Virus record (IMG/VR): IMGVR_UViG_2703718815_000012
Coordinates: 1-46,929 of that record
Strand: one strand, 5' to 3'
DNA from: a virus
Lineage: Duplodnaviria > Heunggongvirae > Uroviricota > Caudoviricetes
Length of the DNA stretch: 46,929 nucleotides
The translations under genes were made by a program, and so were the position numbers. Position 1 is the first letter of the stretch. Every line of letters starts with the position of its first letter. Below, piece after piece: positions 525 to 36,364 of the stretch. The notes below the pieces were generated by a model. It did no database searches. It worked only from the letters and a program-made list of their open reading frames with translations, and was not told where the DNA came from.

Positions 525-1505
525 CTAATGCTGTGATGAGTTTGTCGATTGTTTTCGGATTGAAAATGGAATGCTCATCAACTTCCTGATCATTTGTTCA
601 GCTGGTAGTTTGACTATCACCACCGTTATCATAATGGTTAGGATGGCGGATGCTAATACTGATAGATACTCATTTATACCATGACCAGCAACTGAATAGA
701 TCTTGCTAACAACGATAACAAAGAAGCCGTGGAGCAAATAAATAGATAAAGATTTTTCTCCAATTATTGAGATTAATCCTTTCTTGCCAGGCATTAAAGA
801 TAACAATGCAATAATAACACTGAATGATGCGATAATTGAGAATATCCGCAGCCCAATACCATCGACTATGCTCACAGATAGATCATTAAAGTTATACACA
901 CCAAACCACAATTTGTAGTTGACGCCGAATGAAAACGTGAATATAACTGACATCAAACCGATGGCTATAGACGCGACCGCAACTGATTTGGATATCTTAA
1001 AGTTCTTAGTACATAAAGCACCTGCCATGAAGAAAGGCATGAATACAGCAGTTCTCAACCAACTAAATATATATTCATTAAATGGTAAAGCTCCAGCTAA
1101 TAACGATACAATGACGGCCCCACAGAACACTTTTAACGTTGACCCAACCAGCCCGCAGATCGCATAGAAAGATGCCAAACTGACCAAAAACCAAAGCAAC
1201 CAATATGGCTTGAGTAATGCGTCACTAGCTGTTATTACGCCTTTGAGGACGAAATATGACGCGTATAGAACCTGAAACACTACATAGAGGAATAATACCT
1301 GAACAGACCTTTCCTTCCATTTGCTCCTATTAAACGTCATTCCCGATAAGAATATGAAGGCAGGCATGTGAAACATAAATATCACCTCCATCAATGATAA
1401 CCCTACCACTGATTCCCACCCTGCCGTAACCTCTACCAAGTGTCCAAGAACAACAAGAAGGATCATGCACCCCTTCATATTGTCTATTTTGTAGTTTCTT
1501 TCCAT
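525..1505 (-). CDS. acyltransferase family 3 integral membrane protein (O-antigen O-acetyltransferase-like; lysogenic conversion candidate)
   Basis: polytopic membrane ORF with N-terminal IDNMKGCMILLVVLGH signature typical of acyltransferase-3; clearly more AT-rich than flanking phage genes; ATG at 1505 preferred over upstream GTG at 1523. Confidence 0.7.
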   Translation of the reverse strand: MERNYKIDNMKGCMILLVVLGHLVEVTAGWESVVGLSLMEVIFMFHMPAFIFLSGMTFNRSKWKERSVQVLFLYVVFQVLYASYFVLKGVITASDALLKPYWLLWFLVSLASFYAICGLVGSTLKVFCGAVIVSLLAGALPFNEYIFSWLRTAVFMPFFMAGALCTKNFKISKSVAVASIAIGLMSVIFTFSFGVNYKLWFGVYNFNDLSVSIVDGIGLRIFSIIASFSVIIALLSLMPGKKGLISIIGEKSLSIYLLHGFFVIVVSKIYSVAGHGINEYLSVLASAILTIMITVVIVKLPAEQMIRKLMSIPFSIRKQSTNSSQH

Positions 1506-1614
1506 TTTTCTGCCAAGATGCACATTTAAAGCTGCAATCTATCACCAGAGGTTGTAGATGTGAAGGTTAAGGTTGTGTGTCGTGAGGTATATCACGGCAC
1601 ACAGCCCAGTAACA

Positions 1615-3753
1615 TCAAATCGCTGTGGTTGTGTATGTTACTTTAGTCCCTGAGGCGGTCCCTGACTTACCTATAGTTGCAAAAGCCTCGTCGCAGGTTG
1701 CTGTGGTATTCCCTGTTAGGTTGATATGAGTTGCTCCGTAACCTCCAGTGATGATGTTGGAAGATGTTTTAACTGTTGCGCTATTGTTTATCACCACTGC
1801 TAAATCCGTCCCTGAACTTAACAGAACTGAATCCCGCAGGACTAATCTCGCGCAATTGTCAAAGTACAACCCCCTGCCAGTTCCCTGAGATACATAGTAA
1901 TTATCAACCACTAGACCAGGGCAAATTGCGGCATATAGAGCGTAGTAGTCGGTAGTAAGCCCAACATACTCAGATGAAGATATACTGCATCTGTCACCAT
2001 AGTAAATAGAATACAAGCAACCGCTCCCTCTGGAGATGTTACCGACGAGCTTGACGGCTATAGAATATGTTGAGTCCACTTCATTTCTTGCAACTGATAT
2101 GCAGACTGGTGCCAGGCATGACTGGAATACATTGTCTGATATGGTCCCACTTTGGCACCCTGAAGCCCTGAGAATGCTTAGTGGATTCTCCTGTGATACA
2201 ACGCCACCAGATGCAGGGGCGGTTGTTCCTCCACATGTATGGAATATATTAGCGTTAAAACTAAACCCATTGGCACCGTTAACTATTACAGGTCTAATTA
2301 TCCCATTAAAAAAGTTTCCATCCAACTTCAGTGTTGTCTGTGTTTGTGAGTAAGGAAGAATGTAAATCCCGTAATACCAGTCGGTAGTATTTCCCCCATA
2401 AATGTTATTATTGACTATACTTAAGCGATCATACCCACCCTTCCAGCTAATTGGTATTCTGCACCTTATAAATGTATTGTTTGATATTTGCGTATTAATG
2501 GTAACATGACTTGTACTGTCATCAGCCAAAATCCCTGAATCACTATCTTCAATGTAATTATTAACTATTCGTATATTTCTGTTGCCAGTATTATGAATGG
2601 AAATCCCACAGTATGCCGAGTTCCTAACCGTGCATCCATCAATCAGGCAGTCATAACCGTATGACCATCCTGCTGTCCCTGCTGCGTCATAGGATATAGG
2701 CAAAATATTTCCTGCGGAATCGCTAGCTTCTGAAGCATTAGGATAACTTGCAACATCGATCTGAAAAGCAGCGCTGTTGGTTCCTTCTGACCAGCAGTTA
2801 ATTACTTTCCAATACTGGCACCCAGCCCCATCCCATAAATGCCAGTGGAGATATTTGCTTCCAACATTAAACAGGGTTATGTGCCTTGCCCTGTTAGCTC
2901 CAATTCCGTTTCCTCGACCAACAGGCCCGCTAACCACTAAATTCATGAAAATGACACGCTCAGTAAATGCGGCATATGATTGGAAGGTCGCAGGCTGAAG
3001 TGCAGAGCCGTTCGTAGTATTGCTATCGTGAAATAAACAGGCTCCCTGCCCATCAACAACCAAATTGCTTCCATATAGCGTGGTATAAGTAGTTCGATAC
3101 GTTTTCCCGGGTGAGAACACGATCTTGCCGCCACCAGCTGCAATGGCAGCCTGGAAGCATGCGTAAATTGCTGCAGTATCATCGGTCCCGTTACCCACAG
3201 TTCCGTTACTATCACCCTTAGCTCCACCAGCAAATTGCGGGTCATCAACACTAAAAACGCGTGAATGCACGGAAAGAATACTGTTGAGCTCCTGCTGAAC
3301 AGTCTTTCCATCAGAGTGTTTGATTAACGATGTGCCTGGCAATGATGAACTATAGAGTTGGCCGCGTAGTGTGGCATCACCTACCGACAGCCATGCACCA
3401 ACACCAATGCCGCCAGTTGAAGTTGGTGTAGAGCCAGGAGGTACCACCTTGCCACTCACAGGAAAAGCCCCACCCCAGCGATAATACTCGCCAGTTGCCT
3501 CAAGGCGAAGAACCTCATTAGGCAAGGTGAGGATCGCACCATCTTCGAAACTATCAATTGTGATGTAGCCGAAGGCGGCCATTGTCTGCTGGGCTAACCA
3601 ACGAAGACCTTCGATTGTATAGTGCTCACCACCAAAGCGGTCTGTGTATTTCAAACCTGATGAGGTTACGAACTCGTCAATTTTCCCGGCATTAAACTTC
3701 AGATCGCGCGGTGATTCGCTTGGTACAGGCTGGTTTGTAGGTTGCGTAGCCAT
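1615..3753 (-). CDS. tailspike / tail fibre with C-terminal right-handed beta-helix (pectate-lyase-like, probable polysaccharide depolymerase)
   Basis: 712-aa ORF at distal end of tail module; Gly/Asn/Ser/Thr-rich repetitive beta-strand sequence with repeated I/V-x-N-N turns. Confidence 0.65.
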   Translation of the reverse strand: MATQPTNQPVPSESPRDLKFNAGKIDEFVTSSGLKYTDRFGGEHYTIEGLRWLAQQTMAAFGYITIDSFEDGAILTLPNEVLRLEATGEYYRWGGAFPVSGKVVPPGSTPTSTGGIGVGAWLSVGDATLRGQLYSSSLPGTSLIKHSDGKTVQQELNSILSVHSRVFSVDDPQFAGGAKGDSNGTVGNGTDDTAAIYACFQAAIAAGGGKIVFSPGKTYRTTYTTLYGSNLVVDGQGACLFHDSNTTNGSALQPATFQSYAAFTERVIFMNLVVSGPVGRGNGIGANRARHITLFNVGSKYLHWHLWDGAGCQYWKVINCWSEGTNSAAFQIDVASYPNASEASDSAGNILPISYDAAGTAGWSYGYDCLIDGCTVRNSAYCGISIHNTGNRNIRIVNNYIEDSDSGILADDSTSHVTINTQISNNTFIRCRIPISWKGGYDRLSIVNNNIYGGNTTDWYYGIYILPYSQTQTTLKLDGNFFNGIIRPVIVNGANGFSFNANIFHTCGGTTAPASGGVVSQENPLSILRASGCQSGTISDNVFQSCLAPVCISVARNEVDSTYSIAVKLVGNISRGSGCLYSIYYGDRCSISSSEYVGLTTDYYALYAAICPGLVVDNYYVSQGTGRGLYFDNCARLVLRDSVLLSSGTDLAVVINNSATVKTSSNIITGGYGATHINLTGNTTATCDEAFATIGKSGTASGTKVTYTTTAI

Positions 3754-3764
3754 ATTGATTCCAT

Positions 3765-3790
3765 AAAAAAACCCGGCGCAGTGGCCGGGT
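3765..3790 (-). terminator. intrinsic terminator-like hairpin between tail-tip gene and tailspike gene
   Basis: minus strand reads cccggc-cactgc-gccggg followed by TTTTTTTAT, about 20 nt after the stop at 3812. Confidence 0.5.
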
Positions 3791-3811
3791 CAGGTTGGTC
3801 GGGGACGGTTC

Positions 3812-6289
3812 TTATTGGTAGATGGCGTCGCTGTACTCCGCGACCGTCAGTGAAACCGTATTATCTGTGTTCGGTTTGATGCTGTTGACCGTCCATAGCT
3901 GACTGTCCAGTTCCTCCACTGTCGCAATGAGATAGCGCGACGGGAGCTGCACAGTGTCTCCGTTCCATATATTGAGCTGAATGTCTGGTAGTGCCGCGGT
4001 GAAGCCGTACTTCGTGTCGCTGCGGGCCGTCGCCGGATAGCGCAGCGTCGGATTACCCAGGCTGTCGGTCACCAGCACGTACATTGAACCGGTAAACGCG
4101 ATCGGCTCGCTTGTATCGAAGTTATTCCCGGCGCGGCCGGTGATGTACCCCTGCTGCTGGTTGCTGTCGTAGATGTCAGGCATCTGAATGACGCTGCCAA
4201 CCTGGATAATGCCGTCTTCGAACACTTTGGCGTTCATCTTCACCCGGGAGTAGATGAGGCGCTTGGTTTCGCGTAATGCGCGCTCACGCGCCTGATACTC
4301 GTTACGGAAGCCGACTATCTCCAACTTATTGGGGTTCTCCGCTTCCTGTTCAACGATAGTGCCGTTCAGCACGCGGTAGTTGATGTACGTCTTATTGTTC
4401 GTGGTTGGGTGAACATAGGACACCTGCACACCGTCGTAGCCGCCAGGAAGAGTGGCCTCGTACGTCATTTTGTACTCGTCCGTCTTCATGTTGGCCCGGT
4501 TGAATACGGCCGCCGGGTAATCAACTTTCTGATCCCTGGTAAAGGTCAGCACGCCGTCATCCCAGTACGCCACCACTGACGCCGCATTGCAGATCGCCTG
4601 CACGCGGTCGCCCAGCGAGTCGTTCTCGTCATCAAACGTGTAGTCGAAATAACCCAGGCGCTCATCAGGCAGGCTTTCAGCAATCGAGTACAGCCCGTAC
4701 AGGTCAATGCTGCTGACCGGCTGCCCACCCATAATCAGCCAGGTGTGTGCTACTGCATCAGCGAACGAACGCGAAGGACGCAGCGTGTAATCCACCGTCT
4801 GCGTGTCCAGGTCGTATGTGATGGTATGACGCGTCACCAGGGCGTTGTATTTGCGGTCACGGCTTCCGAGGGCGTTCTCTGTCGCCCTTACCTTCACGCG
4901 CACCAGCGTATCGGTTGGATGCACTACGTTGGTTCTGACGTTGACCGAGTGGATCTCCTCAACCTTCAGGATAGAAGCATCACTTGAGTTATCTGTGCGC
5001 TGGAAGTTAATGGCGTACTTGCCGAAACCGCCGGTCGGCGTCAGCTTGTCAGTGCGATAAAACACTTCGCTGGATGATTTGTGCGGCGTCCCCTGGTGAT
5101 ACGTGAACGTCTGCTGAGTACCCGGCACCTGGTTGTAGTCATCGTCAATCTTCCAGATCGTGACCTTCCAGTCGGCTGACTTTTTGCCGCCCACTTGCAC
5201 CTGAGTGTGCAGCCACAACTGAGAAGACTCGACCGGCGAGAAGAACGGGCCTACCACGAGCGCTTCGTTATCGTTGAGGATGAATTTCGTCGTGTTGATT
5301 GTCGCCGTTGCCGGCACGTCAGGAGGGCCAATCAGATCCCCCATCGTGAATGTGTACCACCGGACCGGGTTAACAACCGCGCCGTCGTTAGTTTCGACAG
5401 CTGAAATCAGCGTACCGGAGAAATCGACATCCTGCGTGACATTTCCGGTTGGCGTGCTGTAGGTGACGTTAATCGTGAATGTAACCGCATGCGGAAGGAC
5501 GAGGCCCATGAAGTAATCAAACTCAGCCTGCTTGATGATTTTTACTGCAATCTGCCCGCCGGAGTAAGTTCCGCTCACAACCGTATTGGCGGTGGCTGTC
5601 TCGATCGGGAAATTGTCCGATTCGTTTTGGCCAGGCACTTCCTGCCCGTCGACGTCGTCGAACCCGTAGCCTTCGTTGATGGTGGGGATCACTTCGCCAG
5701 GCTGGTAAAACTGAAACTCTGCACCGGCCATGCTTCCGAGGCTGGACTCTGAATAACGCACAGATTCGTAATCGTATTTGCCGATCCCGATGCACATCCA
5801 TTCAGTAACGTATTTCAGGCCGCCATCCGTGTCGCTCTGGCGCACATATTCGAACAAAGATTCCTGAATCAGGTCCGGGAACGAGCGGATTTGCCCGTAA
5901 ATGTCCGGTTTTGCTTTATAGACGCGCGCAGTATTCGTCTGGCCGGTCAGGCTATTGTTTGGCGAGTCAATCGTGTTGCCGCCGGTATTAGCGATCGCCG
6001 GTTTGGGAGCAAGGAACGAGAAGACCGCGCCGACAACTTTGAAAATCGGGCTGAGAATGTCGCCAATGATACCCTTCGGCTGGTCGAATATCTGGATGGT
6101 GTCCAGTTCGCATAGCTCAAACGCCAGTTCATCATCTTCGCTCAGCTTTACGCCATTGCGGACGATCAGCAGGTCGCGGTGGAAAGTAGCGTCATTGGCC
6201 TCCAGCCAGTCATAAAAAAGGGTGCCGTTTGGCACCCTGTAGCGTTCTTTTGGCGTTCCCGGGAAACGCTGGAGTTCAATCAACGCCAT
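3812..6289 (-). CDS. tail tip / host-specificity protein (central fibre, gpJ analogue of T1/GTA-type tails)
   Basis: 825-aa ORF immediately downstream of the tail NlpC/P60 peptidase gene; assignment by size and synteny. Confidence 0.55.
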   Translation of the reverse strand: MALIELQRFPGTPKERYRVPNGTLFYDWLEANDATFHRDLLIVRNGVKLSEDDELAFELCELDTIQIFDQPKGIIGDILSPIFKVVGAVFSFLAPKPAIANTGGNTIDSPNNSLTGQTNTARVYKAKPDIYGQIRSFPDLIQESLFEYVRQSDTDGGLKYVTEWMCIGIGKYDYESVRYSESSLGSMAGAEFQFYQPGEVIPTINEGYGFDDVDGQEVPGQNESDNFPIETATANTVVSGTYSGGQIAVKIIKQAEFDYFMGLVLPHAVTFTINVTYSTPTGNVTQDVDFSGTLISAVETNDGAVVNPVRWYTFTMGDLIGPPDVPATATINTTKFILNDNEALVVGPFFSPVESSQLWLHTQVQVGGKKSADWKVTIWKIDDDYNQVPGTQQTFTYHQGTPHKSSSEVFYRTDKLTPTGGFGKYAINFQRTDNSSDASILKVEEIHSVNVRTNVVHPTDTLVRVKVRATENALGSRDRKYNALVTRHTITYDLDTQTVDYTLRPSRSFADAVAHTWLIMGGQPVSSIDLYGLYSIAESLPDERLGYFDYTFDDENDSLGDRVQAICNAASVVAYWDDGVLTFTRDQKVDYPAAVFNRANMKTDEYKMTYEATLPGGYDGVQVSYVHPTTNNKTYINYRVLNGTIVEQEAENPNKLEIVGFRNEYQARERALRETKRLIYSRVKMNAKVFEDGIIQVGSVIQMPDIYDSNQQQGYITGRAGNNFDTSEPIAFTGSMYVLVTDSLGNPTLRYPATARSDTKYGFTAALPDIQLNIWNGDTVQLPSRYLIATVEELDSQLWTVNSIKPNTDNTVSLTVAEYSDAIYQ

Positions 6290-6668
6290 AAGAAAAATAC
6301 TCCACTTTGGTGAATGCCCGCTGAATAACCAGCAACGAGTCCATGCGCACGCTTCCGTTCTCGCCGCGCGAGTGCAACGCCTGTCGGTTCAGCACCAGGC
6401 CAACGTGTGCCGGTTGCGCGCCGCGGTACCCGACGAATATCCCGCCTTCGATCGGTTTATCGACCTGGCGCCAGAAGACGACGTCACCCTGATAGCAGGT
6501 GAAGAAGTCCTCACCGGCTTCGTAGTCCGGTGTCTGGTGCAGCTCAATGCTGAGGACATGGCGGTAATACAGCACAACCAGCCCCCAGCAATCAGTCTTT
6601 TCGAATGAGCAGGCGCGGTTAGACCACGGCACGCCGATCACCTTGCGAACAAAATCAGAGGTATTCAT
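6276..6668 (-). CDS. tail-associated NlpC/P60-family (C40) cysteine peptidase
   Basis: 130-aa ORF with Cys (TDCWGLV) and His (AHVGLVL) spaced as in the NlpC/P60 fold; ATGA overlap with HNH gene stop. Confidence 0.5.
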   Translation of the reverse strand: MNTSDFVRKVIGVPWSNRACSFEKTDCWGLVVLYYRHVLSIELHQTPDYEAGEDFFTCYQGDVVFWRQVDKPIEGGIFVGYRGAQPAHVGLVLNRQALHSRGENGSVRMDSLLVIQRAFTKVEYFSYGVD

Positions 6669-7129
6669 GTGCCGTGCCTGCCAGTTACATCGCCGCTTCT
6701 CACTTCAGCAATAATTCTCGCCTCACAAGCTGAAGGGAAGTCAGGAAACCAACCAAGATGAGCATTTGCCAATCTTGCGCGCCACTCATTCCTTCTCTTC
6801 AAGAAATCCACGCCAGTAACACCTGATGTATTACCAGTTAGTTTTCTTTTATTCCTTGAGTTGACAGCTCTGCTAACCGCCCTGAGGTTATCTATGTTGT
6901 TATTTTTTTTATCACCATCAATATGATCAATTTCATGACCGTTAGGTATTTCACCATGGTGCATCTCATAAATAATCCTATGAACAAGCAATTGCTTTCC
7001 ATCAACGATTACAGAGAGATATCCTTGTGTAGTAGTCTTGTTTGGTGACCTTCCGTATCTGACACCACTCCTTCTTATATTCCAATATATCTTTCCATCA
7101 TCATATCTGAAAAGTTCATGCCAATTCAT
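6665..7129 (-). CDS. HNH homing endonuclease (NUMOD4-like N-terminus plus HNH_3 motif)
   Basis: HEIDHIDGDKKNNNIDNLR HNH motif, N-terminal DGKIYWNIRRSGV segment; AT-rich gene with AT-rich upstream spacer, sitting between two tail genes. Confidence 0.75.
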   Translation of the reverse strand: MNWHELFRYDDGKIYWNIRRSGVRYGRSPNKTTTQGYLSVIVDGKQLLVHRIIYEMHHGEIPNGHEIDHIDGDKKNNNIDNLRAVSRAVNSRNKRKLTGNTSGVTGVDFLKRRNEWRARLANAHLGWFPDFPSACEARIIAEVRSGDVTGRHGT

Positions 7130-7205
7130 ATAGAGACCTCAACCAGAAGATACAAATATATTTAATAAGAGCAAGAGAAGTAGCGCGCCTAATAATTATA
7201 CCACT

Positions 7206-7676
7206 TCATAAATATTGAAGCCCAGTATATTCGCGGGGGTCGTATAATTTCCCAATATTATTATTGAGTGGATTTGTAACAGAAAGGGTTACCGACGCTG
7301 AGTCTGCGTCGATGTCCACCGTCTTGACGTATAACTGCCACGACTTAATCGGCACCGACACATCGCCGCTGTCGAAGATCTGCCGGGTGGCCGTGATGGC
7401 CGTCAGACGGGCTGCACCCTTCCACTGTTTCATCAGCGCTTTGATATCCGACGACAGCCGCCCTAACTTCACCGTCGCGTCAATCACCGGCGTGCCGCTC
7501 TGCTGACTCTCTTCTATTTCAAAGCGCGCTGGCGTGTATGTCTGGCCGCCAAGTGTCTTCGGGAAGAACTGCTTATCGACCAGGCGGACGTAACCAAAGG
7601 ATGGGTGGTAGAACGTGATGGTGTCGTACAGCCCGCGCGTCGGGCGCTGCTGCTTATAAACTCTGAAGGTAGGCAT
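7206..7676 (-). CDS. tail protein (tail-tip complex component)
   Basis: 156-aa ORF in tail module; start overlaps upstream stop (TAATG). Confidence 0.45.
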   Translation of the reverse strand: MPTFRVYKQQRPTRGLYDTITFYHPSFGYVRLVDKQFFPKTLGGQTYTPARFEIEESQQSGTPVIDATVKLGRLSSDIKALMKQWKGAARLTAITATRQIFDSGDVSVPIKSWQLYVKTVDIDADSASVTLSVTNPLNNNIGKLYDPREYTGLQYL

Positions 7677-8173
7677 TACGGCACTCTCGGTAAAGATTCC
7701 GGGTCGCGCCCGTCAGGATAACCAGTAACAACGATATCTAGCCACGAATCCCACGGCGGCGGAAGTTCAACAATGATGTCGTCAAACTCGTCGTCAGCGT
7801 TGTAGAGGTGGTTTGCGATAACAGTTCCCGTCCAGGTCACCACCCCGCCGTCGATACTGGTTTGCACCGGCATCTGCGTGAAGTGAAGTTCCTGCAACTG
7901 CAGGCCACTGCCGCCAAGGTTGATATTCATCCGGAACCAGTTAAGGCCGCGGTTGAGATAGTTAGGGCTGCGCAGCCACTGCTGAAAAGCGCGCTCCTGG
8001 TCAAGAGTGAAGATCCACGTCAGGGACCATGTCACTTTCAGGTCGTCAGTAAGGCTCTGGAAGATAGCCGGGCCGACCGCTGGCTGATCGGTCTGGAACC
8101 CGGTATCGAGCGTCATGTTTTTGCTGGCCTTCTGCGCCAGCGGCAGCCAGTCGGGATAGTCGATAATTGGCAT
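7676..8173 (-). CDS. tail protein (distal tail / tail-tip complex component)
   Basis: 165-aa ORF following tape measure and small tail protein genes. Confidence 0.45.
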   Translation of the reverse strand: MPIIDYPDWLPLAQKASKNMTLDTGFQTDQPAVGPAIFQSLTDDLKVTWSLTWIFTLDQERAFQQWLRSPNYLNRGLNWFRMNINLGGSGLQLQELHFTQMPVQTSIDGGVVTWTGTVIANHLYNADDEFDDIIVELPPPWDSWLDIVVTGYPDGRDPESLPRVP

Positions 8174-8189
8174 CTAAACTCCAGGCATT

Positions 8190-8210
8190 AAAAAACCCGC
8201 CGAAGCGGGT
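8190..8210 (-). terminator. intrinsic terminator-like hairpin
   Basis: minus strand cccgc-ttcg-gcggg followed by TTTTTTAATG, between genes 8211..8441 and 7676..8173. Confidence 0.45.
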
Positions 8211-8441
8211 TTAATCTATGGCAGTTGGTCGTCTCGGAGCTTCAAAAATTTTAATGTTAAATTCTTGAATAGAGCCGTTACTCTTAAACTCAAGTGTCTC
8301 ACCTGCAGGAATAACACCGGCAATGTAAGTGCCATCTGTTAGCAAAAACTCAAAATTAACAGCCCGGTTAGCTGAGTATTTGACAACCTTCCCGCTTTCA
8401 AGTGGCATGCTTTTTGACTCGCCCGGCAAAATACTATCCAT
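8211..8441 (-). CDS. small tail protein
   Basis: ORF directly after tape measure gene; ATG at 8441 with GAGGG SD preferred over the TTG at 8453 used by the ORF track. Confidence 0.4.
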   Translation of the reverse strand: MDSILPGESKSMPLESGKVVKYSANRAVNFEFLLTDGTYIAGVIPAGETLEFKSNGSIQEFNIKIFEAPRRPTAID

Positions 8442-8449: not shown

Positions 8450-11400
8450 TCAATTTTGACCACGTGGAGTTCTTTTGGCATTGAAATTACTTGTTATGCC
8501 CTGAGAAATTGGACCACCATTATTTAGATCAGCAATGATGGCATCCACGGTTATTGTACCATCTCCACTACTCGTAGCCTGAGCATCAAATGTGGCTCCC
8601 GTCATATTCTGAACGTTGATTATGACGTTCACACCTCCGCCAGCATTCATCTCCTTATTGCTGATAACCTTGCCATTGTCGCCCGGTATCATGTACTGCT
8701 TACCGGTACTGGCCTGGTAAATCTCAGGTTTCCCTCGCTCACCGACCTGATAAAGACCTCCTGCATTCACCGGGCCGCCATTGTAACGCATACCGGTTAA
8801 AGCAAGGCCCTGTGCCAGGCCTATCGTTGAAGCAATTCCTGTCATGGCAGGAACTGAGTTACCACCAAAAGAAGCAAGGCTAGCAAAGGCTGCTGCCGGA
8901 GCCCATGCTTTAGCCAGAAATACAGCCTCCGTCGCACTGGCAGCAGTAGCCGCTGCGCCCAATGTCTGCCCTATAATGAAGTTTTTGAGGGCCTCAACAC
9001 CAACCTGGACTAGCGCATTGACCACGCTGTTCAGCATCGTATTCCCGAGTGAACGCATAGCATCCTGCGCTGACATCGTTCCGGTGATCAGCCCGGTTAA
9101 CGCATTGGATGCATTACCTGAAAACGCATCCACCGCGCTTGTCAGCATTTCATAACCAAGACCTTTCTGACTGAGCAATTGCCACTGAGCGGCTGTCATC
9201 TGCTCATTGAACTGGTTTTCCTGCGCAGTCTTTAAGGCAAGGTACTGGGCATCGGTAGCTGCCTTTGCAGCAACGAACTGATCGTAATTTATTTTCCCTT
9301 TTTGGTAACTTTGCTGGAGTATCGCCTGTTCCTGCTGCTGATATTGCTGCAGCAGGGCTAACTTCTGGTTATTTTCATTCACCAGTTGCTGTACCGGGTC
9401 AACTTCTGCTCGGGCAGAAGCTACCGGATTGACTGCGGCCTGGGCGTTAATCTTGGCGAGGTTATTCTGGTGCTCGAGCGCCATTTTCTCCGTGGCAGCG
9501 TTATACTCCTTGAGATCTATTTTCCCAGCGTTCAGTGCGGCCTTCAGATTTTGCATGGATTCGGCGTAGGATTTATTCTCCGCCTGCAAAGGCATTGCCT
9601 TAAGTGCTTCCGTAACCCCTTTGGCTGCCGCTGATGCATCCCATGCTTTTGCTGCATATTCACCGGCCTTTTTAATTTGCTCCTGGGTTGCAGAATTACC
9701 CAGTGACTGCTGAGCACGTAATATGGCCTGCTCTCTGCTTAGCTCCTCCGTTGAATCAGCTGCCAATTCTGACTGCTGCTTCAGATTCGCCAGCTTCTGA
9801 GCAACAGATTCAGCAGAAGACGCTGATTTCTTCCCCTGCCGCTCACTCTCTTGTTGAGATTTTTTTCTGGCTTCTTCTGACTTCTCTAAATCATAATTTT
9901 CAGCAGCCAGCCTGCCAGCTGCAGAGATTTGATTCTGATTGTCAGTGACCTTGGCAGCCTGCATCCTGGCTTTGGCTATCGCCCGCTCTCTCTCGTCCTG
10001 AATTTTAAGTAATTCATTCTGCTCTTCCAGAGTAGCGATAACTTTATCGCCCTCCTTGGTCGCGGGAGATATCTGCAGCGCTTTGTGGTCGAAGCTTTTT
10101 CCGGCCTGATTGGCTCGGTTTATTTCATCAGCCGTCTCCCCAAAGGCTTTCGCTACCGCACCCTGAACTTGCTCAAGAGACCAGGATTTTTCGATGAGTT
10201 GATCATGAACGCCCATCGCCGTAAGCATGTTGTTCGTGAGTGTGCGAGTCGCCTCAGACGCGGTTTCTTCTGTCCGGGATAATTTATCCTTTGCGGCCTC
10301 AAGATCTCGCGTCTTGCGAGCCAGTTCATCAGACACCTCCGCCTGTTGACGGGCGAAATCCGCACCTTGCCCCATAGATTCAGCAACTTCCTGCGCTGCC
10401 GGGGTAAAGTTCTGATATCTGTCTCTCAGCGAGTCAACTTCACTCTGCAGATCTGCTACATCCTCTTTCTGAGCTCGAATAGAATTATTGGCATCTGCAA
10501 TAGCCCCACGCAGCTGCGTGTTCGACATTGCATTCATGGCGGCGTTGAGCTTATCCAGACCATCGGCGAAGGCGATAGCCTCCTCTTTTGCCTGTTGAGC
10601 TTTCTGCCAGAAATAGAAGATCGCTCCGGCAGCAAGCATAGCCGCACCAGCTGGACCCCCTATAAGAGCAAGTGCACCACGGGCCATTCCGATACCAATT
10701 GACGCTGCACGAGCAGCGGTCGCTGCGCGGGCAGATGCTGCAGCCTGGGCAGTTTCAGCCTCGGCAAGAGCAAGAGATGCGGTAGTAGCACGAGTTTTTG
10801 CGGCCACAAGAGCATCCATTGCCAGCATCTCTGCAGCGCTACCTTTTGCCACGTTATATTCAGCCTGGGCCAGCGCGAGAGACGAAAGAGCAGCCTCTTT
10901 ATCAGCCAGAGCCTTACGCTGAGCAGAATTAGCAGCAACCAAAGCTGCTTGTGCCGCCTGACTCTCTGCAACAGCCTGCTGACGGGATGCTGCGATATCA
11001 GCGATTTTCGCTGAGGTAGCCATGGTCAGCGCACCGACATACCGCGCACCCATTACGCCGGCAACAATCGTGAGCGTAGTGCTGAGAACGTCCAGGTTTT
11101 CACTGAGAGAAATGACTGAATCACTGAATATTTTGACGCCAGTTTTTACAGTGGCATTCTCGCCAAAGAACTTCGTGATGTTGTTGTTGGCAATTTCAAG
11201 AGACTGGCTGATCGTGGCAGTAGTTTTAGCGAACTCCTGTCCAATTTTATCGCCCTGAGAAAGCAACCCATTCACGATCACATCAGTGGTTAACTTGCCC
11301 TCTGCAGCCATGTTTCTGAGCGCCCCAATGCTGACATTCATCGAGTCAGCAAGAGCAATCATGAGCCGGTTACCCTGCTCGTTCACAGAGTTAAATTCAT

Positions 11401-11965
11401 CACCTCTTAAAGCTCCGGACGCCAGCCCCTGAGCAAGCTGAATGATTGCGTTGCTTGCCTCCTCGGCTGTTGACCCTGAGACCACGAAGCCCTGGTTAAT
11501 AATGGTTGTCAACCTGGTAATGTCCTCAACACTGACACCATAACTCCGTGTTGATCGCTCGAGACGTGCATAGAGAGTGGCCGTGGCATCGAGACCTGAA
11601 CGAGTCTTTTGAGAGATGTCAAAAACACGCTCTGTGACATCAGCCAGGGTCTCAAAAGGCGGTACGGAATCCCTGACGGCGTTTGCCAGTTTATTACTCA
11701 GGTCCTGCCATGCCTGGGCGTATGCGCCGACCTGCTGGACAGAAAGAGCGGCAATGAGCGCTTTCGCGACGCCAGTTAAGCTGGACATAGTGCCTTCAAT
11801 CGAAGACAGGGATCGTTCAGTGCGGTTTAACCCCGCCTCAAGACGACCCATGCTACCGTTAAGACCATTTAACGCGGCATCGATATCCCGGCGTCCCTGA
11901 AGGATCCCGGCGGTGTCCATGTCAACTTCATAAACAATCGTTCCAGCGCTGACAGTACCAGCCAT
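8450..11965 (-). CDS. tail tape measure protein
   Basis: 1171-aa Ala/Gln/Glu-rich largely helical ORF in the canonical position between chaperone and tail-tip genes. Confidence 0.85.
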   Translation of the reverse strand: MAGTVSAGTIVYEVDMDTAGILQGRRDIDAALNGLNGSMGRLEAGLNRTERSLSSIEGTMSSLTGVAKALIAALSVQQVGAYAQAWQDLSNKLANAVRDSVPPFETLADVTERVFDISQKTRSGLDATATLYARLERSTRSYGVSVEDITRLTTIINQGFVVSGSTAEEASNAIIQLAQGLASGALRGDEFNSVNEQGNRLMIALADSMNVSIGALRNMAAEGKLTTDVIVNGLLSQGDKIGQEFAKTTATISQSLEIANNNITKFFGENATVKTGVKIFSDSVISLSENLDVLSTTLTIVAGVMGARYVGALTMATSAKIADIAASRQQAVAESQAAQAALVAANSAQRKALADKEAALSSLALAQAEYNVAKGSAAEMLAMDALVAAKTRATTASLALAEAETAQAAASARAATAARAASIGIGMARGALALIGGPAGAAMLAAGAIFYFWQKAQQAKEEAIAFADGLDKLNAAMNAMSNTQLRGAIADANNSIRAQKEDVADLQSEVDSLRDRYQNFTPAAQEVAESMGQGADFARQQAEVSDELARKTRDLEAAKDKLSRTEETASEATRTLTNNMLTAMGVHDQLIEKSWSLEQVQGAVAKAFGETADEINRANQAGKSFDHKALQISPATKEGDKVIATLEEQNELLKIQDERERAIAKARMQAAKVTDNQNQISAAGRLAAENYDLEKSEEARKKSQQESERQGKKSASSAESVAQKLANLKQQSELAADSTEELSREQAILRAQQSLGNSATQEQIKKAGEYAAKAWDASAAAKGVTEALKAMPLQAENKSYAESMQNLKAALNAGKIDLKEYNAATEKMALEHQNNLAKINAQAAVNPVASARAEVDPVQQLVNENNQKLALLQQYQQQEQAILQQSYQKGKINYDQFVAAKAATDAQYLALKTAQENQFNEQMTAAQWQLLSQKGLGYEMLTSAVDAFSGNASNALTGLITGTMSAQDAMRSLGNTMLNSVVNALVQVGVEALKNFIIGQTLGAAATAASATEAVFLAKAWAPAAAFASLASFGGNSVPAMTGIASTIGLAQGLALTGMRYNGGPVNAGGLYQVGERGKPEIYQASTGKQYMIPGDNGKVISNKEMNAGGGVNVIINVQNMTGATFDAQATSSGDGTITVDAIIADLNNGGPISQGITSNFNAKRTPRGQN

Positions 11966-15249: not shown

Positions 15250-15267
15250 TATCGACTCCGTGAAATA

Positions 15268-15308
15268 CCCCGCCGGAGCGGGGCATAAAAAAACCGCCTT
15301 AGCGGCGG
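15268..15308 (-). terminator. tandem hairpins with U-tract after capsid-associated gene
   Basis: minus strand ccgccgctaaggcgg followed by TTTTTTT, then second hairpin ccccgctccggcgggg. Confidence 0.5.
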
Positions 15309-20747: not shown

Positions 20748-21995
20748 TTAGCGAAGGCGTTTCGGAATCATCATCCCAGCCATCTGGCCTTTGCGCTTAA
20801 TGTGTCCGTCGAGGCTATAGCGAATACCATCCCAGCAGTGCTCATAGCCATCGGCGAGCTTAGGCAACACCTCGCCAGTGATGCGGTCCGTTTTGTACGA
20901 CCACATGCGGGCCTCTCGCGCTACGTTCTTGCAGCGCGGATGGATAATGATTTCGTCGAATCCGCGAAGATGTGCAATACCGTCCTCAACGCTCCCCTGC
21001 CATTTCTCGGCGGCCGAGATGTTGAAGCCCTGCCGCTTGAGATAGCTGATCGTCTCGGGTCGAGCGGAGTCGGCCTTGATGGGCCAGTCACGCGCGCCTG
21101 GTATCGTGTCGTACAGCTCAGGCATGTGGTCGAGCTCTGTCTGCTGACCGTATGCCTCGTATTCGATGTAGAGCCGGTTGTGCAGGATGAACGAGCGAAC
21201 TAGCGTGTTGGGGTCTTTAGCGAAACCGAAGTCCGCGCCGAAGAACAACCGATCAGCCTCTTTCCAGAGGTTATCCGAGAACTCAGCAATCCGGTATTTA
21301 CCGGCCAGCACCTGCTTATCAGAGTTTTCGAGGTAAGCCCCCTCCCACACCCATGCGTATGTTGCCGGGTCGAGGCGTCGCTGATCGTTCTGTCTCTCAC
21401 CTTCCAGCACGTCAGGGAACCACGGGTTATCCGTGTAGTTCATTTCAACGGTGATGCAGTCGTCGCCAGCCTCTTTGCGGAAACGCTTATCCGTGGCGCT
21501 ACCGTCACGCTCCGGGTTCCACGTCACCCAAATCTCTGATCCCTCTTCACGAACGGTAGGACTCAGCTTCTGCCAGGCAATTTCGCTGACTGATTCAGCC
21601 TCGTCCACCCAGCACAATAGAATGCGCGCTTTCGACTTGATGCTGTCGAGGTTATGCCTAAGACCGCAGAACACGTAGTTAACGCTCTTGTCGATGGTGC
21701 GGATGTACTTCTCGCCGATATCAAAGTTGGAAGCCAGCCAAGGGACAGACAGGATCGCCTGCTTCACCTCCTGCATACTCGACTCTTCCAACGAGTTCAT
21801 GAACTCACGGGCGCAGAGCACCACGCCGCTTTCACCGTTCATCATCGACTGATAAGCCTTTACAGCAGTCATCAGGGCGAATGTGCGCGTCTTGGCGCTG
21901 CCGCGCCCACCGTGCGAACACCGGTAACGCTTATTCACGGCGGTGAACAGTGGTGCAAGCTTCGCGGGGATCGGCAGTTGAACGGCTTCACTCAT
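20748..21995 (-). CDS. terminase large subunit (PBSX / Terminase_3-type)
   Basis: N-terminal ATPase region (P-loop-like HGGRGSAKT, Walker B-like LLCWVDEAE) and C-terminal nuclease region; ATGA coupling to small subunit. Confidence 0.85.
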   Translation of the reverse strand: MSEAVQLPIPAKLAPLFTAVNKRYRCSHGGRGSAKTRTFALMTAVKAYQSMMNGESGVVLCAREFMNSLEESSMQEVKQAILSVPWLASNFDIGEKYIRTIDKSVNYVFCGLRHNLDSIKSKARILLCWVDEAESVSEIAWQKLSPTVREEGSEIWVTWNPERDGSATDKRFRKEAGDDCITVEMNYTDNPWFPDVLEGERQNDQRRLDPATYAWVWEGAYLENSDKQVLAGKYRIAEFSDNLWKEADRLFFGADFGFAKDPNTLVRSFILHNRLYIEYEAYGQQTELDHMPELYDTIPGARDWPIKADSARPETISYLKRQGFNISAAEKWQGSVEDGIAHLRGFDEIIIHPRCKNVAREARMWSYKTDRITGEVLPKLADGYEHCWDGIRYSLDGHIKRKGQMAGMMIPKRLR

Positions 21996-22478: not shown

Positions 22479-23117
22479 TTACGCCAGCTTCAACATGCAC
22501 GTCCCGCATGACCTGGCTATATCGATGTGAGCCACTTCTGCTGGCGCATTGGCCGCATCAACGAGCTCCTGTACTTCTTTGCTGGCACCGTATCGCCGTA
22601 CGACACCAGTGAATTCTTCGACGTCGTGGCCGCGCAGTGTAAGCACTGGCTGCCCGGTCTCTTTGTTGAACTTAGGCACGCCGAAATCATCGGTGTCCTG
22701 GGCGATGTGGTAAAGCTCATGCTCTACCAGTGCGCAGAATTCAAGGTCACTGCATTGTGAGCAGTAATCGGCTGCCAGCGTGATGATGAACTTCGGGATT
22801 CGTCCGAACCATTCATGCATCTGCTGTTCCATTCTGGCTTTCTGCCAGCCACCGGCGCGTAGCATTACCTGTTCAGCCTGACCGAGAACGTAGCGCCCTT
22901 TCTTCGCGAACGAGTCAGAGGCCCACATGAAGCAGAGATCAGCCTCTAACAGGTGCTCGTGGTCAGAGTTATGGATGCTTCCGGTGTCGCTGAGGATTTG
23001 GCGGTTTATCCACTCATGCACTTCGTTGGCGGGGATCAGCCTGGTGTATGGCTGCCAGTTGTCGGAGTCGATGAAGTCGACTGGCGGATATGGCCTGCGA
23101 TCGTCATCGTTATCCAT
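22479..23117 (-). CDS. hypothetical protein with HExxH motif (putative metallopeptidase-like)
   Basis: 212-aa ORF containing HELYH; first gene of the packaging block. Confidence 0.35.
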   Translation of the reverse strand: MDNDDDRRPYPPVDFIDSDNWQPYTRLIPANEVHEWINRQILSDTGSIHNSDHEHLLEADLCFMWASDSFAKKGRYVLGQAEQVMLRAGGWQKARMEQQMHEWFGRIPKFIITLAADYCSQCSDLEFCALVEHELYHIAQDTDDFGVPKFNKETGQPVLTLRGHDVEEFTGVVRRYGASKEVQELVDAANAPAEVAHIDIARSCGTCMLKLA

Positions 23118-23150
23118 ATCTTACTCCGTTCATTCGATCGCTATTTAAAT

Positions 23151-23183
23151 GTGATTTGCTCCTCATGATTTGCTCAAAATCAC
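23151..23183 (+). promoter_or_regulatory. operator-like repeat cluster upstream of plus-strand moron
   Basis: direct repeat TGATTTGCTC x2 (23152..23161, 23166..23175) nested in inverted repeat GTGATTT...AAATCAC; followed by TAAGGAGG SD and ATG at 23237. Confidence 0.4.
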
Positions 23184-23236
23184 TCAATAATTCCTACTTT
23201 TAGTCGATTATTGAAGAGGTTTCATAAGGAGGAACT

Positions 23237-23575
23237 ATGGGTATTGAAGAGAACTTGCTCGAAACACTGTTAAAGCATGATGTTTTCCATAATGAAGATG
23301 GCAAAGTATCAGGCATTGCCAAGCTTGCTATCGACAAAGGATATGCAACTTTATCGCCAGCACAAAAGAGAGTATTACAACCGTTTATGAGTCATGGTTG
23401 TGAGGGTTACACCGATCCTGGTGGACATCACAACGGTTGCGGAAAGGTTCTTGAAGGTGCAGAGCTTGATGAAGCTTATGAGCATACCTGGGAACATGGC
23501 GGCTTAGTCTGCGAAGACTGTCGCGAACAAAGTGATTATGACGATTACCGTCGTGAAAGGTTCATGAAAGACTAA
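23237..23575 (+). CDS. hypothetical Cys/His-rich protein (moron, 112 aa)
   Basis: only plus-strand gene in the late region; strong SD, own upstream repeats, own terminator; HGCEGY...HHNGCG...CEDC suggests metal binding. Confidence 0.55.
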   Translation: MGIEENLLETLLKHDVFHNEDGKVSGIAKLAIDKGYATLSPAQKRVLQPFMSHGCEGYTDPGGHHNGCGKVLEGAELDEAYEHTWEHGGLVCEDCREQSDYDDYRRERFMKD

Positions 23576-23581
23576 TGTTTC

Positions 23582-23614
23582 GGCCTATCTAACGGTAGGC
23601 CTTTCGCTTTTCCC
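23582..23614 (+). terminator. intrinsic terminator between convergent genes
   Basis: ggccta-tctaacgg-taggcc followed by tttcgcttttccc, 7 nt after the stop. Confidence 0.6.
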
Positions 23615-23619
23615 TTCCT

Positions 23620-23835
23620 TTACTCACTTTCTTCTGTTGACTGGTTGGCCTGCTCTGCCGGTACTGGCGTGAACTGCACGCGCTTCACATCGGCCGGTGC
23701 GAAATACAGCCACTCGCCTGAATCAGTCGCCAGCGGCACAAAGCCATTAACCAACTCAGGCTGACGTCGTGACATCTTGCCCGTGAAGGTTTCGCCTGTT
23801 TGAGTGGTTAGCGTGATTTGGTAGATGTCGGACAT
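23620..23835 (-). CDS. hypothetical protein (71 aa)
   Basis: ATG 23835 with GAGGG SD (track ORF starts at GTG 23847). Confidence 0.4.
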   Translation of the reverse strand: MSDIYQITLTTQTGETFTGKMSRRQPELVNGFVPLATDSGEWLYFAPADVKRVQFTPVPAEQANQSTEESE

Positions 23836-23858
23836 GAAGACCCTCACAAGCCACTGTT

Positions 23859-23890
23859 GAAGAAAATGCCATCAGCATGGTGATGGCATT
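23859..23890 (-). terminator. intrinsic terminator after AT-rich moron gene
   Basis: minus strand perfect 10-bp stem AATGCCATCA/TGATGGCATT, 6-nt loop, then TTCTTC; 23 nt after the stop at 23913. Confidence 0.6.
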
Positions 23891-23912
23891 ACAATTCAAT
23901 AATATGGCTGTA

Positions 23913-24497
23913 TTATTTTGCAGTTTTGTATTCAATAAACCCGTCAAAAATCAGACTATCGATGGTCATCATTTTCGTAAGTTTTTCCATAACCTCAGGA
24001 TTTTCTTGCATATCAACAAGCCATCTCCTCACGCCATTAGCTATATCATTACATAACTCAATAACATCTAATTGCAGAACACCATTAAAAGCATTCATAT
24101 GTGCATGAAGGTTTTCTCGCGCAGGGGTCGTTATCTTAAACTTCCTTAGCTTCGTTTCATCAACGCCTTCATGCAAACATGCATTCCTTAAACTCCAACA
24201 GTCTTCTGCAGTGAATGAGACTACGGGTTTTTGCGCCCTTAAGCTTTGCTTTATTCCTTCAGGCATGCTCTGAACCATTGCAGGGCTGGTGAGACTTAAA
24301 TAGTCATACATGTTATCAGCGTTATATCTTGGCTTAAGATAGCGATTAAACCAGTCCTTGTACCTCGCGCCATTTCCTTTGATTTTATCCTCTGTCGCGC
24401 CACAGATGTCAGGAAGTGATATTGCTATGAATAAAGCACCAAACCAATTCTTTTTAGACAAGCAATCATCTATTCCACTCAGCAACTGTTGCATATA
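23913..24497 (-). CDS. hypothetical protein, AT-rich moron (194 aa from ATG 24497; 220 aa if started at 24575)
   Basis: codon composition much more AT-rich than neighbours; SD AAGGTG before ATG 24497; C-terminal helical region contains RENLHAH (R-x5-H), reminiscent of a HEPN motif. Confidence 0.5.
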   Translation of the reverse strand, partial: YMQQLLSGIDDCLSKKNWFGALFIAISLPDICGATEDKIKGNGARYKDWFNRYLKPRYNADNMYDYLSLTSPAMVQSMPEGIKQSLRAQKPVVSFTAEDCWSLRNACLHEGVDETKLRKFKITTPARENLHAHMNAFNGVLQLDVIELCNDIANGVRRWLVDMQENPEVMEKLTKMMTIDSLIFDGFIEYKTAK

Positions 24498-24562
24498 TGA
24501 GCACCTTATTTTGTTGTAGACAGAGCCTACAATACAACCAGATGCAACTATTAAGAAAACCT

Positions 24563-25024
24563 TTACTTCAAGCACTGAGTGCTTAGATATTCCTGAAGAT
24601 AGCCAACCTGCTTCATCACTGTGGCGATTCTTTCTCTGAGGGTGAAATAATCCCGTTCAGCGGAGTCAGTAAGTCGGGGGCCGGAAGCATCGCCCATGCC
24701 GCTGGAGCCGGTCGTTCCGTTCGCGGGACAGTTTGCGTTGAGCTGCAGCCGCTTACGGCCAGCAATGACATCGCTATGCAGACGCTCAATGGTTTCTTTC
24801 GCATCAGCTAGTTCTCCGGTGTATTTGGCATCCAGTGCAGCGACATCACGCTGGCGGGCCTGCATGTCTTTTATGGTGGTGTTAGCCAGGCTGAGTTTCT
24901 CAGTGGCTTTATCGCGCTGGTCTTTATAAGCGATGGCGTTGTCGCGGTAGTGGTTAATCGCCCAGGCCATGGAAACGAGCAGGCAGATAACGACAGCACA
25001 GATGATTGCTGTTAATCGGCTCAT
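24563..25024 (-). CDS. Rz: i-spanin Rz
   Basis: N-terminal TM anchor then coiled-coil periplasmic domain; ATG 25024 overlaps endolysin stop; lipoprotein gene embedded in another frame. Confidence 0.8.
24616..24804 (-). CDS. Rz1: o-spanin Rz1 (outer-membrane lipoprotein) embedded in Rz
   Basis: signal peptide ending in lipobox VSGC, Pro-rich mature part, entirely inside Rz in a different frame. Confidence 0.75.
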
Positions 25025-25896: not shown

Positions 25897-25972
25897 TGGT
25901 GCTGATTGACGGAGTTGAACCGCCGACATCCTGCTTACAAGGCAGGCGCTCTACCTACTGAGCTAAATCAGC
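25897..25972 (-). tRNA. tRNA-Thr (anticodon UGU)
   Basis: 76-nt cloverleaf on minus strand: acceptor stem GCTGATT/AATCAGC, D-arm AGCTCAGTAGGTAGAGC, anticodon stem CCTGC/GCAGG with loop CUUGUAA, T-arm GGCGG-TTCAACT-CCGTC, encoded CCA. Confidence 0.85.
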
Positions 25973-36321: not shown

Positions 36322-36337
36322 ACCCCACCTTGATTGA

Positions 36338-36364
36338 AAGCCCCGCATTGCGGGGTTTTTTATT
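36338..36364 (+). terminator. intrinsic terminator ending the cI operon
   Basis: ccccgc-att-gcgggg followed by TTTTTTATT. Confidence 0.7.

Follow-up and report, generated by a model that had tools for sequence, protein, structure and literature searches.

The DNA analysed here, called the window throughout, is a Caudoviricetes sequence of 46,929 nucleotides (nt) from IMG/VR (record IMGVR_UViG_2703718815_000012, positions 1 to 46,929), and the whole of it is an integrated lambdoid Enterobacter prophage with integrase and terminase genes. Its kin include the Enterobacter phage CobraSix, phage ENT1 and the Cronobacter phage ENT47670. At the junction between a minor tail protein gene and an NlpC/P60 gene in the tail-tip block lies what is very likely a homing endonuclease cassette, built around a free-standing I-HmuI-like gene of the HNH_3 family whose product has an AP2-like C-terminal domain. 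The invasion of the tail module by a free-standing homing endonuclease gene had been proposed in an earlier inspection of the letters (the sequence-only reading), and is supported by the occurrence of both empty and occupied sites among relatives, by the foreign GC content and by the conserved catalytic residues. Its enzymatic activity and actual homing are inferred. The cassette and its two neighbours comprise the following features:

6664..7268, minus strand: whole conserved and presumably mobile cassette, about 605 bp, made up of patch, spacer, HNH open reading frame (ORF) and new NlpC start codon
7206..7676, minus strand: minor tail protein gene, 156 amino acids (aa), phrog_396 (E 2e-42), upstream neighbour of the HNH ORF
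7206..7268, minus strand: AT-rich patch, comprising the last 20 codons and the stop of the minor-tail gene, delimited by composition and by identity to relatives
7130..7205, minus strand: AT-rich non-coding spacer or leader of 76 nt upstream of the HNH ORF, GC 0.34
7195..7203, minus strand: TGGTATAAT, extended -10-like element of putative function
7137..7140, minus strand: GAGG, a Shine-Dalgarno-like motif 7 nt before the HNH ATG, read from the sequence
6665..7129, minus strand: predicted HNH homing endonuclease ORF, 154 aa, ATG start, HNH_3 and PHROG 99
6851..6988, minus strand: HNH (beta-beta-alpha-metal) catalytic core, residues 48-93, from the I-HmuI alignment
6692..6829, minus strand: AP2-like putative DNA-binding domain at the C-terminus, residues ~101-146, from the AlphaFold2 model and Foldseek
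6665..6668, minus strand: ATGA, in which the HNH stop TGA overlaps the NlpC/P60 start
6276..6668, minus strand: NlpC/P60 tail-tip gene, 130 aa, Pfam NLPC_P60 and phrog_329, downstream neighbour

The HNH ORF, the AT-rich spacer upstream of it and the overlap of its stop with the NlpC start were all found where the sequence-only reading had placed them.

Occupancy of this position was compared in two sets of relatives. The first was a set of species representatives, in which 17 prophages were retrieved with the minor tail protein and 16 were usable, locus L023 being set aside. For the second, IMG/VR contigs were selected by the minor tail protein alone; of 402 such contigs the best 80 were taken, and 78 of these were complete. 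Empty loci were divided into type A, in which the minor-tail and NlpC genes overlap, and type B, in which a short spacer lies between them. The locus is empty in 14 of the 16 representatives (12 of type A and two of type B with a 9-nt spacer), and the occupied ones are Enterobacter genomosp. O, with the same gene at 97% identity, and Serratia fonticola, with a 51%-identical homolog, both in the same place. Likewise, 66 of the 78 contigs are empty (32 of type A and 34 of type B) and 12 are occupied. Whole-genome BLAST placed window positions 6663 and 7213 at adjacent, 2-bp-overlapping positions in CobraSix (15923/15924) and ENT47670 (47168/47169), which amounts to a clean 551-bp insertion relative to both phages, with nothing deleted from the relatives. 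Presence and absence are thus polymorphic at this exact position, and the opposite pattern, a gene present in all relatives with matching GC content, is not what we observe. In the index of the assembly collection, 943 blocks contain the identical 154-aa protein, and in all ten places examined it sits at the minor-tail/NlpC junction, despite differing tape-measure and tailspike genes.

The composition and the diversity of the region delimit the element more closely. The GC content is 0.34-0.39 across 6751..7350 as compared to 0.53-0.61 on either side, and the HNH region is among only seven stretches in the window with a GC content below 0.38. The HNH ORF itself has a GC content of 0.41 and a third-codon-position GC content (GC3) of 0.34, with 0.34 for the spacer, 0.55-0.60 for the flanks and a window mean of 0.52. 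In comparisons with ten other prophages, the insert is 99.1-99.3% identical, whereas the genes on either side are 82-92% identical. The near-invariant block has sharp edges; its upstream edge lies 63 nt short of the minor-tail stop (~7268) and its downstream edge coincides with the endonuclease stop (~6664). The low-GC insert at 6665-7205 (541 bp) that was singled out by the sequence-only reading is therefore real, but the foreign block goes 63 nt further, into the minor-tail gene, and covers about 605 bp (6664..7268). The spacer is without differences among loci L024-L033, with two private single-nucleotide polymorphisms in the window. On the downstream side, identity is lost within a few bases of the endonuclease stop. 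The upstream breakpoints differ by lineage; that of the window is at ~7268, and in others it lies another 30-45 nt upstream, a difference that fits co-conversion tracts of varying length. The sign of such co-conversion of flanking sequence is one at the population level only, consisting of a 63-nt patch that is 100% linked to the gene and of breakpoints that vary.

Nucleotide diversity was estimated in two sets of occupied loci. The first set contained 12 aligned loci, 10 of which were picked by exact protein identity, and gave values of 0.08-0.15 for the flanking genes, 0.009 for the spacer and 0.006 for the ORF. The second set contained 14 IMG/VR loci with 94-100% protein identity, and here the values were 0.030 for the patch and 0.028 for the ORF, as compared to 0.116 for the 5' part of the minor-tail gene, 0.134 for the NlpC gene, 0.171 for the TipJ-like gene and 0.176 for a 165-aa gene. 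No trough in diversity was observed at the junction in the type-A empty loci, which served as a control. Furthermore, all of 15 HNH ORFs are intact, and the pairwise ratios of nonsynonymous to synonymous substitutions (dN/dS) are 0.02-0.21. A young and discrete block in old, diverged flanks, combined with purifying selection, is the expected look of a functional element that has been recently and repeatedly transferred.

The assignment of the protein to the HNH superfamily is far beyond chance, with a match to HNH_3 (Pfam PF13392) over residues 48-92 that reaches 75 bits, well over the cut-off of 24.8 (E 3.4e-21), and a match to the PHROG 99 "HNH endonuclease" family (E 6e-48). The sole sequence match in the PDB is I-HmuI (1U3E; E 3e-4), and the residues D68/H69, N81 and N90 align with D74/H75, N87 and N96 in I-HmuI. 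In an alignment of 62 homologs, there is no variation at H50, N77, N81, R83, N90 and N93 and a conservation of at least 90% at D68 and H69, and we conclude that the catalytic residues are conserved, as they should be under the sequence-only reading. An AlphaFold2 model with a mean predicted local distance difference test score of 88.3 contains a beta-beta-alpha core (strands 65-69 and 82-86, helix 87-91), followed by a three-stranded sheet and a helix. The best Foldseek match of the model is again I-HmuI 1U3E (probability 1.00, E 2.4e-4), although only 86 columns were aligned, with template modelling scores of 0.40/0.35, and the C-terminal domains differ. The next matches are to AP2 domains, including that of WRINKLED1, with a probability of 0.92 but an E-value of 0.55, and PfAP2. 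Pfam AP2 was not detected in the window protein even at E-values up to 10, and in same-junction orthologs it scored at E 2e-4 and 4e-3, under the 33.3-bit cut-off. For this reason, we refer to the C-terminal domain as AP2-like rather than as AP2.

The HNH gene is intergenic and the ORFs on both sides of it are complete. An Rfam scan of 6200..7800 at E-values up to 1, including the group I and group II introns, gave no match, so that no intron or other structured RNA family is detectable at the locus and the description of the gene as free-standing and intron-less is upheld. PADLOC matched only its generic "HEase" homing endonuclease models, with tail genes as neighbours and no match to a defence system. 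There is no NCBIfam model for the HNH protein or its three small neighbours, and among the deposited phages we found no close DNA relatives of the HNH gene, with protein identities of at most 50%.

A comparison with the empty loci indicates how the cassette has rebuilt both of the neighbouring genes. In type A, the junction reads ...CAGTACCTCTGATTTT, and the ATG of the NlpC gene is located inside the minor-tail gene, 38 nt upstream of its stop. The NlpC gene then starts with ATGACCCAACGG... and encodes a protein beginning with MTQRNTLAFSTSDF..., which is 138 aa long in CobraSix as compared to 130 aa in the window. The last 63 nt of the minor-tail gene in the window encode nearly the same peptide as in type A (LNNNIGKLYDPREYTGLQYL), recoded at about a third of the positions. 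This patch has a GC3 of 0.33, similar to the endonuclease gene (0.34) and different from the rest of the minor-tail gene (0.73), and its identity to the window is 100% in L024-L033, 85% in type B and 66% in type A. The internal NlpC ATG of type A is lost in the patch by a change from TATGAC to TACGAC, the final codons and stop of the minor-tail gene (TAT TTA TGA) come from the cassette, and from the terminal ATGA of the cassette the NlpC gene gains a new start (MNTSDF..., 130 aa), which shares bases with the endonuclease stop. A pair of genes that overlap by 38 nt in the naive relatives is in this manner turned into separated genes. Since the cassette carries the recoded minor-tail end, its stop and the NlpC start, it therefore holds expression signals on which its neighbours now depend, and a simple deletion of the cassette would damage both of them.

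The type-B loci appear to record what happens after the cassette has been lost. Type B is common, with 34 of the 78 relatives (~44%) having the non-overlapping minor-tail/NlpC junction (loci among L087-L166, e.g., L089 at 3457..3500). The patch in these loci has a GC3 of 0.41, a destroyed internal ATG and a relocated NlpC start, as in the cassette, and its nucleotide diversity is 0.019 as compared to ~0.1 around it. We had considered that the patch might be restricted to occupied genomes, an idea that was dropped when it was also seen in these endonuclease-less loci, and we now read it as a co-converted tract that outlasts the loss of the gene. The 9-nt spacers of type B form a series: GGCACGCAC, GGCACGCGC, GGCATGCTC, GGCATACTC and GGAATCCGC. 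The junction in L089, AGGCACGCACATGAAT, equals the last four codons and stop of the endonuclease gene (AGG CAC GGC ACA TGA AT) minus one G. The string AGGCACG(N)CACATGA occurs 31 times in the 2.56 Mb searched, 30 times at the 3' end of an endonuclease gene and once at a type-B junction. The corresponding C-terminal R/N-H/N-G motif is conserved in the endonuclease subfamily whatever the insertion site, so the remnant bases are of endonuclease rather than target origin, and the direction of descent follows from this. We infer that type B is probably the scar of an endonuclease deletion. At 34 contigs against 32, this apparent scar matches the naive allele in frequency.

How the gene is expressed can be suggested only in outline. 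The element TGGTATAAT at 7195..7203 is the sole occurrence of TGNTATAAT in the 46.9-kb window, with 0.86 expected per window, and is not significant window-wide. The same motif precedes the 51%-identical endonuclease gene in L090 and, in the form TGGTAAAAT, the unrelated ENT1-type HNH gene. Its recurrence upstream of other HNH genes argues for, but does not prove, a promoter function. A scan of the spacer for standard -35 and -10 elements found no promoter, leaving TGGTATAAT without a -35 partner, and a standard sigma-70 promoter was accordingly rejected as a candidate. A leader hairpin that hides the ribosome-binding site was also rejected, the predicted fold being no better than that of shuffled sequences (z = +1.2).

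A more extensive leader was seen in two other loci. L090 (3470..3569) and L002 (~3991..4085, minus strand) have in common a leader of ~85 nt (TGGTAWAAT ... CTAGGGTNGCTCCCGAAAANGCNGAAC ... CCATCATCT ... GAGG, then ATG), and the endonucleases that share it are only 28% identical and located at different junctions. There is one possible compensatory change in a stem of this leader, GCGG/CCGC versus GCAG/CTGC. To judge from the shared sequence, it may be a portable promoter-leader module, of which the window cassette keeps only the TGGTATAAT end.

Intronless homing, free-standing endonuclease genes in phages, the co-conversion of flanking sequences and the signals embedded in such genes that favour their retention have been described previously (PMC2988022), and a similar course of events can be envisaged here. 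A related phage genome without the cassette would come to share the cell with the prophage, by superinfection or co-induction. The enzyme, expressed from its extended -10-like promoter, by read-through from the late tail operon, or both, would then nick or cut the allele that lacks the cassette, close to the junction. In recombinational repair, the copy with the cassette would serve as template, and the gene would be brought in along with the adjacent recoded patch by co-conversion. The mismatches of the patch to the naive sequence, at about a third of its positions, would probably shield the carrier from its own enzyme. A later loss of the gene by deletion would leave the type-B scar, recognisable by the AT-rich patch, the separation of the genes and what is left of the final endonuclease codons, and the scar allele is presumably immune to re-invasion.

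The purifying selection on the ORF is open to another interpretation, namely that the nuclease is a weapon in competition, which damages the tail genes of relatives that lack it when these superinfect or are co-induced, and excludes their alleles to the benefit of the prophage. It has been reported that marker exclusion by expressed I-HmuI-like HNH enzymes acts against phage infection (PMC12724721) and that markers of phage T2 are excluded by the endonucleases of T4 (PMC2988022), and the gene is very widespread in Enterobacter prophages. However, 85% of the relatives lack the gene, the PADLOC matches are to generic homing endonuclease models rather than to a defence system, and the sequence cannot separate a benefit for the host phage from selfish drive. 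We regard this explanation as unlikely on its own; it overlaps mechanistically with homing and is compatible with it.

Another thought is that the endonuclease drives nothing and that the cassette is simply a part of a tail-module allele shuffled by ordinary homologous recombination. The flanks are indeed highly mosaic, the best-matching empty loci differ between the left and right sides, and no isogenic pair of occupied and empty loci was seen among 64 empty loci. Yet, ordinary mosaicism leaves unexplained why a sharp 605-bp block of 99% identity is embedded in flanks of 82-92% identity, and why the diversity trough is missing from the type-A loci, and a passive passenger does not sit well with dN/dS values of 0.02-0.21, 15 intact ORFs out of 15 and conserved catalytic residues. 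This makes a mere passenger improbable. The purifying selection would also be expected of a domesticated HNH protein with a role in the phage life cycle, either in tail assembly or in assisting the terminase as for HK97 gp74, and HNH proteins of similar architecture act with the terminase in HK97-like phages (discussed in PMC10448857). However, the gene is absent from 66 of the 78 close relatives and from the viable isolates CobraSix and ENT47670, it is of foreign composition, and it is located ~13.6 kb from the large terminase gene (20748..21995); unlike genes of the HK97 gp74 type, it is neither adjacent to the terminase gene nor conserved across relatives. A domesticated function is accordingly very improbable. 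Least probable of all is a nuclease-inactive regulator that binds DNA with its AP2-like C-terminal domain, as homing endonucleases such as I-TevI can double as repressors (PMC2988022), since all catalytic and metal-binding positions are conserved, both in the window protein and across the 62 homologs. Taken together, these last three explanations have several findings against them, namely the polymorphism, the sharp diversity trough, the signs of purifying selection, the conserved catalytic residues and the remoteness of the terminase gene.

The homing endonuclease cassette remains our preferred interpretation, and the following observations weigh against it. The selection of 10 of the 12 loci in the first diversity set by protein identity biases the diversity of the ORF downward, with less effect on the spacer and the patch and on the second set. 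A pair of empty and occupied loci with flanks that are at least 99% identical was sought in 64 empty loci and none was found; the best matches of empty loci to the occupied flanks reach 98% for the left flank and 97% for the right flank, with a different partner in each case. Because there is no near-isogenic pair, a very recent gain or loss was not caught directly. The naive target region is not unusually conserved, and the idea of an extra-conserved, dual-coding target in the 38-nt overlap of the naive sites was rejected, with a column conservation of 0.82-0.91 at the insertion point as compared to 0.80-0.95 elsewhere. The promoter call consists of one extended -10-like motif without a -35 element, and the AP2 assignment is below threshold. 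Finally, the lineages at this junction are mutually 46-51% identical, a range that equals the 50% identity to a homolog at the RecT/Gam junction in phage Louie. On these identities the hypothesis of one site-specific clade is not supported, and since the window type is equally close to the Louie homolog, we do not claim a single site-faithful clade.

Endonuclease genes of at least three diverged lineages, all from one subfamily of 154-155 aa, occupy this junction. Besides the window type, these are the type found in L090 (51% identity) and a group from Salmonella, Serratia and L101 that is 49-51% identical to the window type and 65-77% identical internally. L090 has both cassette ends of the window type despite the 51% protein identity.

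Among known systems, I-HmuI of the Bacillus phage SPO1 shares the D-H...N...N catalytic arrangement of the window protein and is its best fold match. The I-HmuI gene lies inside a group I intron of the DNA polymerase gene, and the enzyme is a strand-specific nickase. The window gene is instead intergenic and without an intron signature, and its product is of 154 aa rather than 174 aa, with the AP2-like domain in place of the C-terminal domain of I-HmuI. The free-standing HNH mob genes in phage T4, such as mobE, are located between essential genes and mobilised with co-conversion of the flanks, and the mob cassettes carry expression signals that are needed by the neighbours, which favours their retention (PMC2988022, PMC2790892). 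The window cassette is similar in that it holds the region where the upstream gene stops and the codon with which the downstream gene starts, and these cassette-borne signals parallel the embedded promoters that favour the retention of the T4 seg and mob genes (PMC2988022). It differs in being in a temperate lambdoid siphovirus prophage rather than in a lytic T-even phage, in being known from its sequence alone, and in the AP2-like domain, where the Mob class has a C-terminal zinc finger (PMC10448857).

The siphovirus-borne I-HmuI-like HNH genes in lactococcal Skunavirus differ among close relatives in how many there are and where they lie, and have been classified according to where they are inserted (Yu et al., 2025, PMC12724721); they have been shown to have marker-exclusion activity (PMC12724721). 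The window gene belongs to another host and phage lineage, is located in the tail-tip block of a prophage, and the lineages at its junction form no clean clade by identity. HNH-AP2 homing endonucleases, as cited by Barth and colleagues, have an HNH domain at the N-terminus and, at the C-terminus, a DNA-binding domain of the AP2 type (Magnani et al., 2004, PMC520932, cited in PMC10448857), an architecture that the window protein may resemble, although its AP2-like domain falls short of Pfam significance. In ICP1-like phages, homing endonuclease genes form islands; they are found in tail and other structural operons and at the boundaries of genetic exchange, and one such gene can take the place of another at a given location (Barth et al., 2023, PMC10448857). 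The ICP1 "IPA-HNH" domains are said to be too divergent for the HNH_3 profile (PMC10448857), whereas the window protein is a strong match to it. The interchange of such genes at fixed positions in structural operons is nonetheless a likeness of the window neighbourhood to both of these systems (PMC10448857, PMC12724721).

The cassette is a well-known kind of mobile element, a free-standing I-HmuI-like HNH gene in a structural operon, and does not represent a new kind of system. Of modest additional interest are the recoded ends of the neighbouring genes, the change from overlap to separation, and an apparent scar that equals the naive allele in frequency. It is possible, though we hold it only tentatively, that the junction keeps the naive, occupied and scar stages of the life cycle of a homing endonuclease at comparable frequencies in a natural prophage population. 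If so, endonuclease traffic has permanently rewritten an essential gene junction, from overlapping to separated, in nearly half of the relatives, and together with the cassette-less isolate CobraSix, the system could serve for measurements of invasion, immunity and loss among temperate phages. The three alleles would then be tractable for the study of how such elements invade, persist and are lost. Free-standing homing endonuclease genes are known to drive mosaicism in lytic phages, T4, ICP1 and Skunavirus among them, and here one is found in the tail-tip module of a temperate enterobacterial prophage, which is where host-range genes are exchanged. The cassette explains the local anomaly in composition and the recombination boundary beside the TipJ-like and tailspike genes, and annotators should note that the ends of both neighbouring genes are derived from it.

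Several other HNH genes were encountered in the tail regions of the relatives. ENT1 (L002; 3463..3990, minus strand), BHUENT3, BHUENT6 and L023 have a different HNH_3 gene of 175 aa, which is 28% identical to that of the window and sits between the NlpC/P60 and TipJ-like genes, one junction downstream; this junction is uninterrupted in the window. L023 (Pantoea sp. BRM17, PEFU01000003) was left out of the counts because its record is scrambled block-wise. Its tail region at 1800..5300 consists of blocks of ~200 nt, each of them forward but arranged in reverse order with overlaps; an error in the assembly of the public record is the most likely cause. A Salmonella enterica contig (L034, ABOWDQ010000021) has two HNH_3 genes in its tail-tip block, at 3947..4486 and 5001..5468, with a GC content of 0.36-0.39. 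One is located at the same junction as in the window and is 51-52% identical, and the other, of 179 aa, lies one junction upstream, between a 167-aa gene and the minor-tail gene. In CobraSix (L004), the head-tail connector region includes gp10 (7635..8236), which encodes an HNH endonuclease. This gene is absent from the window, where the BLAST segments to CobraSix abut at ~15266..15282. As the cassette is absent from CobraSix, the two genomes each have an HNH gene that the other lacks.

Beyond the cassette and its direct neighbours, the following genes in the window are of relevance:

45748..46929, minus strand: integrase
20748..21995: large terminase gene
8450..11965, minus strand: tape-measure gene, 1171 aa
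between the tape-measure and 165-aa genes, minus strand: 80-aa ORF
7676..8173, minus strand: 165-aa gene, phrog_384
3812..6289, minus strand: TipJ-family gene, 825 aa, phrog_469 and NCBIfam TipJ family
1615..3753, minus strand: tailspike gene

The designation of the region as a tail-tip gene block is borne out by the phrog_396 minor tail protein, the NLPC_P60 domain, the TipJ family and the tape-measure gene upstream. The tight coupling of the tail genes was likewise correctly perceived in the sequence-only reading, as the 165-aa and minor-tail genes have one base (7676) in common and there is an overlap of 14 nt between the NlpC and TipJ-like genes. The tape-measure proteins of prophages with an identical cassette (L024-L033) vary in length, at 797, 836, 891, 976 and 1160 aa as compared to 1171 aa in the window, and in one of these loci the tape-measure gene is split into two ORFs. 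The tailspike genes of the L024-L033 loci are of 722-791 aa.

Further low-GC islands (0.33-0.37) are located in the window at 23101..24601 and 36301..36551; the ORFs at 23237..23575, 23913..24575 and 35632..36321 gave no Pfam match. Directly downstream of the tailspike gene is a 332-aa ORF with an Acyl_transf_3 domain (525..1523, minus strand, GC 0.33-0.41), which is probably an O-antigen-modifying moron and the place of which is taken in relatives by genes of the glucosyltransferase type. Adjoining the integrase is a 386-aa ORF (44267..45427, plus strand) with matches to OrfB_IS605 and to a Cas12f1-like TNB domain; this is a TnpB-type IS200/IS605 element, a second and unrelated mobile element near the integrase end of the prophage. 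The prophage also contains a tRNA-Thr (TGT) gene at 25897..25972 (minus strand), and CobraSix has a tRNA-Arg gene at a comparable position.

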